Source: Candidatus Micrarchaeota archaeon (GTDB lineage Archaea > Micrarchaeota > Micrarchaeia > Anstonellales > Bilamarchaeaceae). Taken from it: a stretch of DNA of 64,000 nucleotides. Shown here piece after piece: positions 3,518 to 53,289 of this stretch; the stretch's first letter is position 1; every line of letters starts with the position of its first letter. The position numbers and the translations under genes were made by a program. The notes beneath the pieces were generated by a model. It ran no database searches. It had not been told where the DNA came from and saw only the letters and a list, made by a program, of their open reading frames with translations. The stretch lies in NCBI GenBank assembly GCA_043816005.1, contig JBDRIM010000041.1, positions 3,326 through 67,325 of the forward strand. Direction: 5' to 3'.

Positions 3518-4555
3518 ATGTCAGAAACTCGCTTAGAAGACAGTCACAAAAAAGGCAAAATAACGTTTAGCGAAGCTGCCCTAAAACAGTACAAAAAGAG
3601 CTATGGGATAGTTGGCAATCACAGTGGAGTGCAAATATGCTTATGGAATAGAAAATCGATCAAAGGCCATCGTGGCTGCTATAAAGTCAAATTTTATGGG
3701 ATAGATTGTCATCGTTGTGCTCAAATGTCACCTGCACTTGCCTGGTGTAATGAAGGATGTATATTTTGCTGGCGGCCAATGGAGTGGATGAAAAAAACTA
3801 AATTTGAAGAAAGTGAAGTAGACGAACCAGATTTGATAATTGCAGAAACAGTGAAAGAAAGAAAACGGCTTTTATCTGGGATTGGCGGTGCAGAAAAAAT
3901 TGATAAAATAAAATTTGAAGAGGGATTCAAAAAATTTCCATCTCATTGGGCAATTTCTCTTAGCGGTGAACCAACAATTTACCCTAAATTAGCTGAAATG
4001 ATAAAACAATTACGAGATAACAAAGAAGTAAAAACAATTTTTATAGTTACAAATGGACAGGAACCAGATCGTTTGCTTGAATTAGTTAAAAAAGACGCAC
4101 TTCCAACTCAACTTTACATTTCTCTAGCAGCATCAAATGAAAAAGAATTCAAAAAAATAAATCGAAGCGTATACAAAGATGGCTGGGAGAGATTAAACAA
4201 ATCATTAGAACTAATGGCTACCCTCCCCTGCAGAAAAGTAATTCGTTTAACCATAATCAAAGGAGTTAATGATTTTGAGTCGATGCTGCCTGAATACGCA
4301 GAACTTATTGAAAAATCCAAAGCTGATTTTGTTGAAGTAAAATCATATATGGCACTTGGCTTTTCAAGAAAAAGACTAGGACCAAAACATATGACCTATC
4401 CTGAGTATTTGATGCCGTGGACTGAAGAATTAGTTGAATATATGCCAAATTACAAAATTATAGATGAGGATACGCAATCGCAAATAATTTTATTAAAGAG
4501 AAAAGATTCGAAAGTGGAAAATCTGATAAGAAAGCATGATATAGGCAATAAATAA
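3518..4555 (+). CDS. taw1: tRNA 4-demethylwyosine synthase (archaeal TYW1/Taw1), radical SAM
   Basis: Radical-SAM cysteine cluster CNEGCIFCWR and upstream Cys-rich region (CYKVKFYGIDCHRC). ATG at 3518 lies just after the E3 stop; the longer listed ORF overlaps E3. Confidence 0.75.
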   Translation: MSETRLEDSHKKGKITFSEAALKQYKKSYGIVGNHSGVQICLWNRKSIKGHRGCYKVKFYGIDCHRCAQMSPALAWCNEGCIFCWRPMEWMKKTKFEESEVDEPDLIIAETVKERKRLLSGIGGAEKIDKIKFEEGFKKFPSHWAISLSGEPTIYPKLAEMIKQLRDNKEVKTIFIVTNGQEPDRLLELVKKDALPTQLYISLAASNEKEFKKINRSVYKDGWERLNKSLELMATLPCRKVIRLTIIKGVNDFESMLPEYAELIEKSKADFVEVKSYMALGFSRKRLGPKHMTYPEYLMPWTEELVEYMPNYKIIDEDTQSQIILLKRKDSKVENLIRKHDIGNK

Positions 4556-4579
4556 AAGGTTTACACTCTTTTAAACTTC

Positions 4580-17625: not shown

Positions 17626-17747
17626 TGCCGGGTTGGCAGATAGGCTATGCGTCCGCCTGCAGACCGCTTTTCTGAGGTTTTGTCTTTAGACAGAATCAGT
17701 GATAAGGCATAAAGCGGAATAGAGGGGTTCAATTCCTCTACCCGGCT
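17626..17747 (+). tRNA. tRNA-Cys(GCA) with canonical-position intron (~17662-17712)
   Basis: Acceptor GCCGGGT/ACCCGGC, discriminator U. Anticodon stem TCCGC/GCGGA with loop CTGCAGA interrupted by ~51 nt. T-arm AGGGG-TTCAATT-CCTCT. Confidence 0.75.
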
Positions 17748-43147: not shown

Positions 43148-43303
43148 TGGGCCCGATGAGATTTGAACTCATGACCTTTCGATTATCAGTCGAACGCTCT
43201 AGCCGAGTTACTCATACCGTTTTAGTTAAATTAATGCGCCAAAAAGTACAGATAGTTTTTGGACGCACCTTTTTCCTAAAAAGGTGCGCTGAGCTACGGG
43301 CCC
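43148..43303 (-). tRNA. tRNA-Ile(GAU) with a ~82-nt D-loop intron
   Basis: Exons GGGCCCGTAGCTCAG / TCGGCTAGAGCGTTCGACTGATAATCGAAAGGTCATGAGTTCAAATCTCATCGGGCCC+A. All four arms pair perfectly once the insert after GCTCAG is removed. Confidence 0.8.
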
Positions 43304-47010: not shown

Positions 47011-48249
47011 ATGACCTCAGGCCAGAGCTTAAATACAACCTACCTCAGAACCCCACACATGAACGAGTATACCATATACAAGCACCAGACGAATATGGTC
47101 CAGGAGTTAAAGCGCCTGGCAAGGGACGATTTGCCAGAGCCAACCAAGAAGAAAATAGAAGAATTCGGAAAGATCAGGTTGGCAAGGGGCACCACAAAGT
47201 TAAGGATAGTTAAATGCATGTGGTGTCTAAGATCACTTGCCAAATGGCTTGGAAAGGATTTTTCCGACGCTACAAAAGAAGATTTGCTTAACCTTGTAAC
47301 TGCGCTTGACCTAAAAGATTATGCTGAACACACGAAATACGACTTCAAAATAGTTCTCAAATTATTTTACAAATGGCTGCTTGGGAATGATGAAGAATTT
47401 CCAGCAGTAATCAAATGGCTTAAGCCCAGAATGAAGAGTCAGAAACATAAACTACCCGAAGAGCTCTTAACGGTTGAAGAAGTCCAAAAACTGGCAAATA
47501 CAACTACAAACGCTCGAGATAAGGCTATTATTTTGATTTTATACGAGTCTGGTTGCCGCATAGGTGAATTGCTTTACCTCAAGCTGAAGAACGTTTATTT
47601 TGACAATTACGGCGCTGTTTTACGCGTTTCTGGCAAGACCGGAGATAGACGAGTTAGGATAATAGCCTCGGTACAAGTGCTAACCCAATGGCTCCAAGAG
47701 CATCCTGATAAGGACAATCCAGATGCACCACTTTGGCCTGCAAGGATGAAAAGATACAAACCTGAACCTTTTGCTTATGCTTCGCTTTTGATTATGCTGA
47801 AATGCATTGCAGTTGCTTGTGGCATTAGAAAAAGAATCTACCCCCATCTTTTCAGGCATAGCAGAGCTACTGCCTTAGCAAATAATCTTACTGAAGCCCA
47901 GCTCAAGGAATATTTTGGTTGGACTCAGGGCTCGGATATGGCGGCTACTTATGTACATTTATCAGGCAGAGACGTTGATACAGCGTTGTTGGCAATGTAT
48001 TCTTTAGCGGATAAACCAGTTCAAAGAGAAACAAAACTTGATATCAAAATTTGCTCCCGCTGCAAAGAAAAGAATTCTCCAACACAATCATTTTGTGGAA
48101 AATGTGGCAATCCATTTGATGACAGACTTTTATTTGACCCCAACAAGAAGCCAAACGAACTCATGAACATTTTAATCGAAGATGAAGAAGTCAAAACTTT
48201 GTTATTGAGGAAAATTACGGAAAAAGGCCTACAGAATTATTTAGGGTGA
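47011..48249 (+). CDS. Tyrosine recombinase/integrase with C-terminal zinc ribbon
   Basis: ARDKAIILILYESGCRIGEL (catalytic Arg region), HLFRHSRAT (HxxR), AATYVHLS (Tyr). C-terminal CSRCKEKN...CGKCGNPF. Confidence 0.85.
   Translation: MTSGQSLNTTYLRTPHMNEYTIYKHQTNMVQELKRLARDDLPEPTKKKIEEFGKIRLARGTTKLRIVKCMWCLRSLAKWLGKDFSDATKEDLLNLVTALDLKDYAEHTKYDFKIVLKLFYKWLLGNDEEFPAVIKWLKPRMKSQKHKLPEELLTVEEVQKLANTTTNARDKAIILILYESGCRIGELLYLKLKNVYFDNYGAVLRVSGKTGDRRVRIIASVQVLTQWLQEHPDKDNPDAPLWPARMKRYKPEPFAYASLLIMLKCIAVACGIRKRIYPHLFRHSRATALANNLTEAQLKEYFGWTQGSDMAATYVHLSGRDVDTALLAMYSLADKPVQRETKLDIKICSRCKEKNSPTQSFCGKCGNPFDDRLLFDPNKKPNELMNILIEDEEVKTLLLRKITEKGLQNYLG
47014..47052. repeat. Left arm of a 39-bp inverted repeat (5' end of the integrase gene)
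   Basis: Reverse complement matches 52973-53011 at 35 of 39 positions, with a 22-nt perfect core acctcaggccagagcttaaata. Confidence 0.85.
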
Positions 48250-49834: not shown

Positions 49835-50979
49835 TCAACAAACTTTGTTATGATCTTCACTGCCAAACAATTCGTTGAATCTAGCGGCCACCCTTTTCCT
49901 GAACTTGTAGGAATTCGCAAATTCGGCATATGCAAGCCAGCCTTCCAAGCTTTGAACGATTTCTTTTCTGCTCATTTCACCCTTATCATATCTCATTTTG
50001 AATTTATCCAAGCGTTTCCATATCCTTCTCGCGTTGCTTTTCTTCAATAATCTGTATTTTGTGAATATTCTGAAACCGAGAAAAGTTATCCCTCTTCGTA
50101 ATGGTATAATCCTTGTTTTTTCAGGGTGAAGTTCAATTTTCAAGTTCTCTCTCAGAAAGATATCTATTTCATGTTCCCAGTTTTCCAATACTCTTTTATC
50201 ATTATGCAGAATAACGAAATCATCCACATAACGGATATAATATTCGGCGTTCAATTCGTGTTTTACGAAATAATCGAGTTCATTGAGATAGAAATTGGCG
50301 AAAAATTGCGAGGTCAAATTACCTAACGGCATTCCCCTACCAACAACTTCTATTTTATGATTTTTCAATATGGTTTCAATTAGCCACATAACTTTTTCGT
50401 CTTTGATTTTTACTCTGATCAACCTAAGTAAAATTTCATGATTTACAGTTTCAAAATAGTGTTTTATATCTGCCTTGAAGATATAACCGATGATGGCATT
50501 ATTGTCCAAATTCGTTCTCCCCCCCCCATTTCGGCATTGGAATGGTTGGTGGAGACTGCCCTCAAGAACTTTTCAAACCGTTTTATCGCCGGATGGGTTC
50601 CCTTGCCTTTTCTGTTGGCGAATGAATCGAAAATGAAGCTACTGCCTAGAATTGATGAAATGACATTGCACAACGCATGATGGATAACTCGGTCTCTGAA
50701 ATCAGATGCACCAATTTTCCTCGTCTTTGGATCTTTCACAATGAACATCGTGATAGGTCTTGGCCTGTAGGTAAAAGTTTGAAGTTCAAACTGCAGATCA
50801 CGAAGATTTTGCTTCAGATCGGCTTCAAAATCTATCACGTAATCCTTCAACGTTTTTCCCTTTCTTGCGTTAAGGAAAGCAAGCTCGAGGTTTTCATAGG
50901 ACGTGAGTTGTTCGTATAAATCGTTATACCATCGCATACAATATGAAGAAGATGAGAAATAGAGATAAAACCCAAGCAT
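49835..50979 (-). CDS. DGR-type reverse transcriptase, split into two listed ORFs by a frameshift in a G-run
   Basis: N-terminal YENLELAFLNARKGK, motif 4 PLGNLTSQFFANFYLNELD (the DGR-typical xGNxxSQ), catalytic YIRYVDDFVIL. The frames join if the run at 50519-50527 gains one G. The likely start is MRWYNDLY at 50937. Confidence 0.85.
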
Positions 50980-50997
50980 TGTAGGTTAAAGTCATTT

Positions 50998-51081
50998 CCG
51001 AATCATTGGACCAGTTGTCATTGGCATTGACGTTACGCCGGTTGTCGTTGTTGAAGTTGTTGCCACGGCCAAGAGGACCGC
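50998..51081 (-). repeat. DGR template repeat (TR)
   Basis: 84 nt homologous to 51582-51665. Coding-strand reading is rich in AAC/AAT codons (GGPLGRGNNFNNDNRRNVNANDNWSNDS). Ends 19-60 nt upstream of the RT start. Confidence 0.85.
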
Positions 51082-51324
51082 CCAATGTAACCCGCTTACT
51101 CAAATGGTACTTGCGTACCTCACCGTAACTTCAGGTTTCGCAAAAGAACGAACTACTAACTGTCGTTACTGAATTTCATAGCCGATAATCAGATGATTAC
51201 AGGCACTATAAGCGAGTGTGTGGCCCTAACCTACAAACCATGAACTATTCGTTCATGATTAGCCAATAAATTGGCCAAAGCTAGGGATATTAATTAGAAA
51301 TAGAAAATTAAAAAATGAAAGGGA

Positions 51325-51996
51325 TTATGCTTTTGGCTGAATTGATTCTATTTTTCCTGCCAGTTCTCTTAGGAACGCAGCCTCATCTAGGATTGGCTTA
51401 ATTAAACTGGCATGCGCATCTACGCTAAGCACTGCACCGAGGCGTTCTGTTAGTCCTTTTGCTACAGTTTCTAATAGTTCCGCTCTTTGTACTAGTGTTT
51501 TTGGGTTTGCAACATCAACCAACTTTTCTTCAGGTACTCCTACCCGCGGCGCGGTCGCTTCGCGACCAATTAACGCCACCCCCGAATCATTGGACCAGTA
51601 GACATTGGCATTGACGTCACGCCGGTTGTCGACGTTGAAGCCGAGGCCACGGCCAAGAGGACCGCTAAAGCTTCGATCTTGATAACGATATAAATAGAGT
51701 GCGTCTGGATTATCGCGATTGCTTGCTTTGCCATTCGGAATAGCAAACGGATTACCATCTGGCACGTACCAACCATCTTTAAGAGGCAAATCTATGCTGA
51801 CTTCAGCTTCGCCTTCATTATGGGCTTTCGCCTTTGTCGCACCTCGTTCGTAGATGAGCAACGTAGCTGTTCTGGCTGGTAAGAATCCTCTTACATTTTC
51901 CCAATCAGTACGAATTGCTTCACTAAGCACGGCATGAATCATCATCCTTCTCGGATCGGTTGTTTTTTCATACTTCGGAACGGTTACAGGACCCAT
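51325..51996 (-). CDS. DGR variable (target) protein
   Basis: Contains the VR at aa ~111-139. SD gaggtg upstream of the ATG at 51996. No signal peptide or TM visible. Confidence 0.8.
   Translation of the reverse strand: MGPVTVPKYEKTTDPRRMMIHAVLSEAIRTDWENVRGFLPARTATLLIYERGATKAKAHNEGEAEVSIDLPLKDGWYVPDGNPFAIPNGKASNRDNPDALYLYRYQDRSFSGPLGRGLGFNVDNRRDVNANVYWSNDSGVALIGREATAPRVGVPEEKLVDVANPKTLVQRAELLETVAKGLTERLGAVLSVDAHASLIKPILDEAAFLRELAGKIESIQPKA
51582..51665 (-). repeat. DGR variable repeat (VR)
   Basis: 75 of 84 positions identical to the TR. All 9 differences (51600, 51602, 51618, 51632, 51633, 51641, 51642, 51644, 51645) correspond to TR adenines on the coding strand. Confidence 0.85.
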
Positions 51997-52972: not shown

Positions 52973-53011
52973 GGTTCTGATGTAAGATCTATTTAAGCTC
53001 TGGCCTGAGGT
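52973..53011. repeat. Right arm of the 39-bp inverted repeat
   Basis: See 47014-47052. Confidence 0.85.
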
Positions 53012-53084: not shown

Positions 53085-53265
53085 CTAGGTCGAGGCAAAC
53101 AATTCGTTGAATCTAGCAACAACCCGTTTTCTGAATTTGTAGGAGTTGGCAAACTCCGCGTAAGCCAGCCAACCTTCCAAGCTTCGTACGACTTCAGCTC
53201 GTGCCATTTCTCCTTTATCACATTTCAGCTTAAACTTTTCAAGGCGTTTCCAGATTCTTCTTGCA
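53085..53265 (-). pseudogene. 5'-truncated remnant of a second DGR-type RT gene (C-terminal ~60 codons)
   Basis: Translates ARRIWKRLEKFKLKCDKGEMARAEVVRSLEGWLAYAEFANSYKFRKRVVARFNELFAST*, compared with ARRIWKRLDKFKMRYDKGEMSRKEIVQSLEGWLAYAEFANSYKFRKRVAARFNELFG in the intact RT. Homology stops abruptly at a T-run near 53265. Confidence 0.75.
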
Positions 53266-53289
53266 TTTTTTTTAAAAAAATAAAAAAGA

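Follow-up and report, generated by a model that had tools for sequence, protein, structure and literature searches.

Diversity-generating retroelements (DGRs) have been described in Nanoarchaeota-like genomes, where the variable repeat (VR) is internal to the target gene, the initiation of mutagenic homing sequence and its template counterpart (IMH and IMH*) are of the TGGGGT/TGGAAT type, hairpins with GRA triloops lie within the target gene, and the targets have no known homologues (Paul et al. 2015, PMC4372165). The target AvpA has a C-type lectin fold that could not be foreseen from its sequence (Handa et al. 2016, PMC5006420), and a survey groups DPANN genomes as a class (PMC8144416). How the activity of such elements is restrained is an acknowledged open question. 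Useful variants are lost under constant rewriting, and according to a 2024 preprint the control mechanisms of mutagenic retrohoming ‘await discovery’. Here, we analyze a DGR carried by a 64-kb stretch of DNA from a Candidatus Micrarchaeota archaeon (GenBank assembly GCA_043816005.1, contig JBDRIM010000041.1, positions 3,326 to 67,325; hereafter the window), in whose reverse transcriptase (RT) gene the reading frame is broken by nine consecutive G (G9), a tract that we propose as a candidate genetic switch. DPANN DGRs are already known (PMC4372165, PMC5006420), and the unusual part of this one is the repeat-interrupted RT.

The G9 run splits the RT into two open reading frames (ORFs) of 171 aa (50464-50979) and 224 aa (49835-50509), which lie in different frames. 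A preliminary description of this DNA had presented the DGR as complete, with an RT read as one ORF (50979/50937-49835); neither statement holds for the sequence as assembled, because the RT is frameshifted at this tract. Insertion of a single G restores a 367-aa RT, from a start at 50937 (MRWYNDLY) that we placed by alignment to homologues. Intact homologues of 355-365 aa align with this repaired protein from one end to the other, covering 98% of it. The lesion is thus of one base, both halves being otherwise intact, and the first of them is present in the database as a separate product of 157 aa (P0166). No other G/C run of at least 8 occurs in the window. We also considered that the split RT might represent two functional subunits, and rejected this possibility: no conserved start of the second ORF was apparent in those loci that were inspected visually, the frame is shifted in either direction, and in-frame versions with the two parts fused are found as well.

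The tract falls in a variable linker between motif 2a (NRKGKGTH) and motif 3 (GYxLKADIxHYF), which in many intact homologues contains Gly, Glu-Arg or Pro runs. We found that four kinds of repeats (poly-G, poly-C, (AG)n and (AC)n) share this one linker position in related loci, in a background of ~36% GC. The frame is broken (OFF) by G9 in the window, by G10 in L019, in L050, where the RT is split, and in L027, which is in the other wrong frame, by C11 in L043-46 (the same in four samples), by (AG)7 in L040-42 (the same in three samples), by (AG)8 in L051/52, and by (AC)6 in L047. It is maintained (ON) with G10 in L036, G11 in L049 (361-aa RT), G12 in L035, (AG)7 in L053, and with an interrupted repeat, GGGGGCGGCGGAGGG, in L037-39, which looks like a stabilised ON allele; the RT of L001 ends at its G10 tract. 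Apart from those at the RT site, the 406 kb of loci compared contain no G/C runs of at least 8 and no dinucleotide repeats of at least 6 units, with the exception of one intergenic (TA)6.

Closely related alleles differ in this very position. L049 and L050, two loci from sister samples, are 99.86% identical over 2777 nt and their sole gap lies within the G tract. All three substitutions in these 2.8 kb are found within 16 nt 3' of the tract (L049 1035-1065 vs L050 3348-3378), a clustering that is due either to local error-prone repair at the repeat or to a sequencing artefact following the homopolymer. At the protein level, the N-termini of the pairs P0195/P0197, P0171/P0177 and P0061/P0235 are 99-100% identical, and the members of each pair differ only in tract length or frame.

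Interrupted RTs are also abundant in the database. A search with RT residues 1-140 as query gave 585 matches, and the best 120 of these were examined: every one is an ORF of 122-223 aa, many are carried by contigs of 50 kb to 1.4 Mb, and nearly all stop just past GGG (54), ERERE (23), PPP (12) or THTH. Both wrong frames are represented among the scorable fragments (31 vs 19), the shift from frame 0 to frame 2 being the commoner. Among the matches listed that have an N-terminal score of at least 170 bits, we counted 111 fragments vs 29 full-length proteins, a ratio that is rough, as it derives from a word-indexed search that is possibly length-biased. When reduced to representatives at 50% identity, repeat-encoded residues are present in 14 of 23 fragments vs 1 of 18 full-length proteins, counts that are too coarse for an ON/OFF ratio, the motif pattern having missed most rows. 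None of the seven OFF alleles examined carries a second lesion in its ~350 codons. Their nonsynonymous divergence (dN) is 0.08-0.3 with saturated synonymous sites, and the ratio of nonsynonymous to synonymous rates (omega) is ~0.03-0.13 where computable.

Because four repeat motifs occupy one site, in the ON and in both OFF frames, with an interrupted variant and with intact ORFs under purifying selection, these loci bear the signature of a contingency locus, and we lean towards the view that the G9 tract of the window is a reversible, phase-variable switch. According to this proposal, the RT, when made, would bind the RNA formed by the RT-16 motif (see below) and the template repeat (TR), and copy the TR into complementary DNA (cDNA) with random bases opposite its 23 adenines, after the example of the Bordetella phage DGR. 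The cDNA would then replace the VR, guided by the IMH and by a hairpin, so that up to 13 codons of the 223-aa target could be rewritten, for a theoretical repertoire of ~15^10 x 4^3, or ~4e13 variants. In the present genome the RT would be off, with G9 placed in a length-tolerant linker, and G10 would be the on state giving the full 367-aa enzyme. Through slippage during replication, the mutator would become active in rare cells and later silent again; most cells would keep their current VR allele, and the ON minority would diversify.

Three other explanations have to be weighed against a switch. The RT might be intact and the frameshift a homopolymer length error of sequencing or assembly, as G9-G12 runs are error-prone and the three L049/L050 substitutions cluster right after the tract. 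However, the frame is broken at the same site by (AG)7, (AG)8 and (AC)6, the OFF lengths are reproduced identically across 3-4 independent samples and assemblers, truncation at this point is seen in more than 100 distinct protein clusters, and an error would not account for the repeats being at this site at all. The dinucleotide repeats and the reproducibility across samples are the strongest of these arguments; we regard such an artefact as very unlikely, and the frameshift is in all probability real. Alternatively, the split RT might be the normal form of the gene, with RNA-polymerase slippage or ribosomal frameshifting providing a low, set level of full-length enzyme. Such programmed recoding is consistent with the out-of-frame state of most close relatives, with the stability of the same OFF length across independent samples, with purifying selection on both ORFs, and with the predominance of the frame 0 to frame 2 shift, which extends to 5 of the 6 loci examined. 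Yet the occurrence of both wrong frames, together with in-frame alleles having the same repeats, means that no single direction of frameshifting fits, and the interrupted, ‘locked-on’ tract of L037 fits switching at the DNA level better. Dinucleotide repeats such as (AG)n and (AC)n are not known to be slippery for ribosomes or for RNA polymerase, which also counts against recoding, and we consider this explanation unlikely.

Finally, the repeat might be a mere mutational hotspot and the RT recently inactivated, leaving a DGR fossil whose VR was diversified in the past. Consistently with decay, the target-linked loci recovered are all RT-defective, being frameshifted in the window, L019 and L027, cut at the tract in L001 and deprived of the RT by an insertion sequence (IS) in L021; moreover, the window contains a relic of an RT 3 kb away and is devoid of an accessory gene. 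Against it, long-term decay would be expected to leave secondary lesions, and the seven OFF alleles are free of them, with omega far below 1. The convergence of four repeat types on the same linker, in a background otherwise without simple repeats, points rather to selection for the repeat, and near-identical ON and OFF alleles coexist. We judge decay, like recoding, improbable.

Several observations nevertheless weigh against a reversible switch. The tract states come from assembled consensus sequences, and reversibility within a population, as well as adaptive switching, is what we infer from them. The same OFF length across 3-4 samples implies that any switching is too slow to alter the consensus, and the share of OFF alleles, ~80%, exceeds the 2/3 expected under neutral slippage, which also fits decay or obligatory recoding. 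The ratio of fragments to full-length proteins may be affected by the possible length bias mentioned above, the full-length protein P0046 having been missed by the N-terminal query, and substitution clusters such as that of L049/L050 can likewise be produced by errors of Illumina sequencing past long G runs. Lastly, with no Avd-like gene in the window, even the repaired RT might not suffice. Altogether, the wider proposal, that the RT of Micrarchaeota-type DGRs repeatedly acquired a hypermutable repeat at a tolerant linker and that a targeted hypermutator was in this way placed under a heritable, stochastic on/off switch, stands in our opinion evenly poised.

Whatever the state of its RT, the element itself is almost certainly a genuine DGR, judging from its sequence: it combines an adenine signature, an IMH/IMH* pair, a hairpin, an RT of the DGR clade, and the order target-TR-RT, in agreement with the preliminary description. 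A profile built from the repaired RT together with its homologues found as best match in the PDB the Bordetella phage DGR RT (bRT; 8ub7, 328 aa), with 215 bits over the full length, the best-scoring group II intron RT reaching 118 bits and retron RTs at most 27 bits. The motif 4 sequence LGNLTSQ of the window RT, of the [ILV]GxxxSQ type, aligns with IGSLTSQ of 8ub7, and the window RT also has YVDD. Pfam RVT_1 matches RT frame 2 at 9e-18, and NCBIfam gave only a sub-threshold group II match (154 bits vs a cut-off of 300), with no DGR RT model among the matches. A group II intron or retron identity was ruled out by these similarity scores together with the TR/VR pair.

The TR and the VR are both 84 nt long, offset by 584, and identical at 75 positions. 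In each of the nine mismatches (TR positions 51016, 51018, 51034, 51048, 51049, 51057, 51058, 51060 and 51061) the TR base is an A, and the probability that all nine would fall by chance on the 23 adenines of the TR is low (hypergeometric P = 2.2e-6); moreover, all nine affect positions 1-2 of AAY or GAY codons. As 9 of these 23 adenines are replaced in the VR, the DGR has evidently worked in this lineage, with adenine mutagenesis in its past. Homology between the repeats runs 12 nt past the 84-nt block, to 50986/51570, with one non-A difference in this extension, and over the extended 96 nt, 13 of the 14 mismatches are at a TR A. In these 12 nt the VR has GGGGGTGGCGTTAA and the TR GGAAATGACTTTAA, which we interpret as an IMH/IMH* pair (GGGGGTGGCG in the VR vs GGAAATGACT in the TR), and the fixed G-vs-A difference between the two is also present in L001, L017, L019 and L021 and agrees with the TGGGGT/TGGAAT pattern of nanoarchaeal DGRs (PMC4372165). 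The preliminary description had the coordinates, length and offset of the repeats, the nine mismatches, the adenine count and the translations of TR and VR exactly right, and we could also confirm its LGNLTSQ and YVDD motifs and its hairpin, including the position of the latter. Its claim of sharp homology edges needs refining at the 3' edge, where homology is 12 nt longer.

The hairpin is found 14 nt 3' of the VR, and no such structure follows the TR. Its stem is kept by paired changes in relatives, namely GGCCGC/GCGGCC in L027 and L035, AAGAGC/GCTCTT in L004 and L023, and AAGTGC/GCACTT in L040, and is conserved around a GCGAAGC-type core even where the encoded peptide differs between relatives. 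Because the stem is retained through compensatory changes despite these differing peptides, it is the structure of the nucleic acid that is under selection here. Read along the minus strand, the whole system is arranged in the order target gene, with the VR at codons ~111-138 of the 223-aa ORF followed by IMH and hairpin, then RT-16 RNA, TR with IMH*, a spacer of ~48 nt, and the RT.

In each RT-bearing relative tested, one TR/VR pair was identified whose mismatches are nearly all at A, except in L017, where a single TR (1071-1149) matches two VRs (135-201 and 784-862) with adenine-only differences, and in L047, for which the TR/VR search gave no match. L011 harbors two target-family genes in tandem (3631-4557), and some relatives (L017, L011) would appear to diversify more than one target. 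Concerning targeting in trans, no second VR for the TR of the window was found in the window, nor could we find a match to the L027 TR in the orphan target-family genes L028, L030, L031 and L034 of the metagenome-assembled genome (MAG) that holds L027.

The 205 nt between the target stop codon and the TR are filled by an RT-16 RNA. The same motif is present, between target gene and RT, in all 11 RT-bearing relatives searched (L001, L017, L019, L021, L027, L035, L036, L037, L040, L043 and L047; 64.8-86 bits), and it ends at the start of the TR, or at most ~4 nt from it, in L001, L017, L019, L021 and L040, where the TR start was mapped independently. In the paper reporting its discovery, RT-16 was assigned no function, RT-10 was located in the DGR of phage BPP-1, and it was suggested that other RT motifs are perhaps parts of DGRs (PMC5737381). 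In BPP-1, the RT is enveloped by the RNA on both sides of the TR, and priming, processivity and termination all depend on this RNA (bioRxiv 10.1101/2023.10.23.563531). By analogy, we presume that RT-16 is the 5' part of the DGR template RNA, and that it may play the role of the TR-flanking RNA of BPP-1.

Not all DGRs have an accessory protein such as Avd or HRDC. In the window, no phmmer match (E <= 1) was obtained to the PF05635 proteins of L035 and L050, and the four small ORFs near the DGR belong to no Pfam, NCBIfam or PHROG family. The preliminary description had seen no accessory gene, and indeed the window is devoid of homologues of the relatives’ Avd-like proteins. In four other loci, Avd-like PF05635 genes coding for 118-121 aa adjoin the DGR (L035 3838-4203, L048 2222-2578, L049 2163-2519 and L050 4475-4831), and no such gene is within reach of the DGR in the window, L019, L027, L036, L040 and L043. 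Accessory-gene content therefore varies within this RT clade.

Concerning the target, we identified 45 homologues, and those with a named source come from Micrarchaeota-type archaeal MAGs, with one from Candidatus ainarchaeum; the genome matches carry the same kinds of names. The family alignment is conserved except for one hypervariable block, which coincides with the VR, and P0018, P0022 and P0024 are essentially identical outside of it. The target gave no match in Pfam, NCBIfam or PHROG, nor did a family profile in the PDB sequences. An AlphaFold2 (AF2) model from 26 sequences was too poor for use, with a mean predicted local distance difference test score (pLDDT) of 51; one from 45 sequences reached 74, with values below 50 in the VR region, and Foldseek searches with this second model gave nothing significant (best E 0.42 in the PDB and 0.035 in BFVD). 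The target family had been left unassigned previously, and these searches leave it so. Its layout, a short internal VR with 10 AAY codons, a conserved strand encoded by the IMH (SGVAL) and a tail after the VR, recalls AvpA.

Table 1. Features of the DGR and of its surroundings in the 64-kb window (positions are those of the window).
Feature	Position	Strand	Remarks
RT reading frame 2	49835..50518	-	Motifs 3-7 and thumb, including LGNLTSQ and YVDD; intact to the stop
RT reading frame 1	50464..50937	-	Residues 1-140 (motifs 1, 2, 2a); out of frame from there to its stop codon (50464)
G9 homopolymer (C9 on +)	50519..50527	-	In the linker between RT motifs 2a and 3; frameshift site, candidate contingency repeat
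IMH*-like 3' end of TR, AAATGACTTTAA	50986..50997	-	From TR/VR comparison
TR	50998..51081	-	23 A; 10 AAY + 3 GAY codons
RT-16 RNA (Rfam RF03019)	51082..51286	-	83.6 bits vs gathering score 50, model 1-158; ends at the first TR base
DGR target gene, 223 aa	51325..51996	-	Beta-rich N-terminal domain, internal VR (residues ~111-138), C-terminal helical hairpin (165-219)
Target-site hairpin GGTCGC-GAA-GCGACC	51553..51567	-	GCGAAGC mini-hairpin core, within target ORF; from sequence and compensatory changes in relatives
IMH-like G-rich end of VR, TTCGGGGGTGGCGTTAA	51570..51586	-	GGGGGTGG in VR vs GGAAATGA in TR
VR	51582..51665	-	75/84 identical to TR, all 9 differences at TR adenines
XerA-like tyrosine recombinase with C-terminal zinc ribbon	47011..48249	+	Beside DGR, likewise in L027, L036 and L043
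39-nt block	52973..53011	-	90% identical to 47014-47052 (integrase codons 2-14), inverted
Relic of a second DGR RT C-terminus	53091..53273	-	82% aa identity to RT residues 300-360
Cys-rich protein, 126 aa	53290-53670	-	N-terminal hydrophobic segment, PPITPPVTPPIT repeat, C-terminal hydrophobic tail
5'-truncated tRNA-like fragment (Rfam)	43155-43211	-	36 bits, model positions 7-64 of 71
Intron-containing tRNA-Cys	17627-17747	+	ARAGORN, only with introns allowed

The surroundings of the DGR are also listed in Table 1. The integrase and the DGR form a 6-kb segment bracketed by the inverted 39-nt blocks, which could represent a recombination (att) site or the scar of an inversion. In L027, a homologous ‘SGQxLNxxYxR’ block comes after the stop codon of the RT, and no exact match to the 39-nt block was found in any of the relatives’ loci. 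In the window this block follows the RT relic, and the two together hint that insertions or rearrangements took place repeatedly at a recombination site. The Cys-rich protein, which has no family match, is flanked by the RT relic and a UvrD-like helicase.

The preliminary description had placed the DGR on a tRNA-integrated element. This could not be upheld: ARAGORN finds no tRNA near the DGR, whether or not introns are allowed, and the only candidate is the truncated fragment detected with Rfam, 3.8 kb from the integrase, which ARAGORN does not call. This fragment may be an old att remnant, but it has no direct repeat elsewhere in the window, and on this basis we rejected an att/tRNA origin for the element of the window. 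With default settings, ARAGORN reports no tRNA at all in the 64 kb, and the distant tRNA-Cys appears only when introns are allowed. In the relatives L021, L035, L036 and L043, a tRNA does lie beside the cassette.

Related loci show further arrangements. In L001 (1213-2161), the RT ending at its G10 tract is followed by a second target-family gene. In L021 (7006-8172), an IS transposase gene comes directly after the TR and the RT is lost. In L037 (377-3226, 5670-7092), ~1.7 kb separate the DGR from a 23S rRNA gene, an interval that contains an IS110-family transposase gene.

We found no paper linking DGRs with simple-repeat switching or with frameshifted RTs, in a literature search whose coverage was incomplete, so that an earlier mention of split RTs is possible. 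If our interpretation is true, a slippery repeat within the RT would offer a simple genetic answer to how mutagenic retrohoming is regulated, and would provide an archaeal example of repeat-mediated phase variation. The idea lends itself to a direct test in existing metagenomes, and as the repeat and the VR are only ~1.1 kb apart, single long reads can tie the state of the switch to VR diversity. Furthermore, the orphan RT-16 RNA can now be positioned immediately 5' of a DGR template, and a widespread family of DPANN DGR targets, without assignable fold, is defined. Many such elements are probably overlooked or mis-scored by DGR detectors in which a full-length RT ORF is a requirement.

Among the closest known systems are the DGRs of the Nanoarchaeota type (DUSEL4), with which the DGR of the window shares a DPANN host, the target-TR-RT order, an internal VR of ~27 codons with 10 AAY, Gs in the IMH where the IMH* has As, a GRA-triloop hairpin in the target ORF, and a target without sequence homology to known families. 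The DGR of the window differs from them by the frame-breaking repeat in its RT and by RT-16 located 5' of the TR, neither of which is mentioned in PMC4372165 or PMC5006420 according to term searches of these papers. The target has no detectable sequence or fold similarity to AvpA or to any PDB entry, and ~85 residues with a helical hairpin follow its VR.

The comparison with the BPP-1 DGR (bRT-Avd, TR, Sp RNA, mtd) also reveals both common and distinctive features. BPP-1 provides the closest solved RT, which aligns over the full length and has the I/LGxxxSQ motif, and the two systems have in common adenine-specific differences between TR and VR, an IMH/IMH* pair and a hairpin 3' of the VR. The structured RNA flanking the TR can be likened to that required in BPP-1 (bioRxiv 10.1101/2023.10.23.563531). 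However, the main structured RNA of the window, RT-16, is upstream of the TR, whereas RT-10 of BPP-1 lies in the spacer between TR and RT (PMC5737381). The window moreover has no Avd, a spacer of only ~48 nt, a target that is not a recognisable C-type lectin fold, and an RT interrupted by a repeat. With respect to the RT-16 motif itself (RF03019; Weinberg et al. 2017), the window matches the whole model above the gathering score and next to an RT gene, as originally described; unlike in that description, the motif is here placed, in 12 of 12 loci, at the 5' flank of a DGR TR and so assigned to the DGR template RNA.

As for the proposed switch, its closest counterparts are the simple sequence repeat (SSR) contingency loci of Neisseria, Campylobacter and Haemophilus. 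Like these, the RT gene carries, towards the 5' end of its coding region and at a length-tolerant position, a homopolymer or dinucleotide repeat, with ON and both OFF frames, tract lengths that vary between near-identical alleles, an interrupted ‘locked’ variant, and a strong over-representation of the repeat with respect to the genome background. What sets it apart from the known SSR contingency loci is its archaeal host and the nature of the gated gene, which codes for a mutator enzyme and not for a surface structure or a restriction-modification system.

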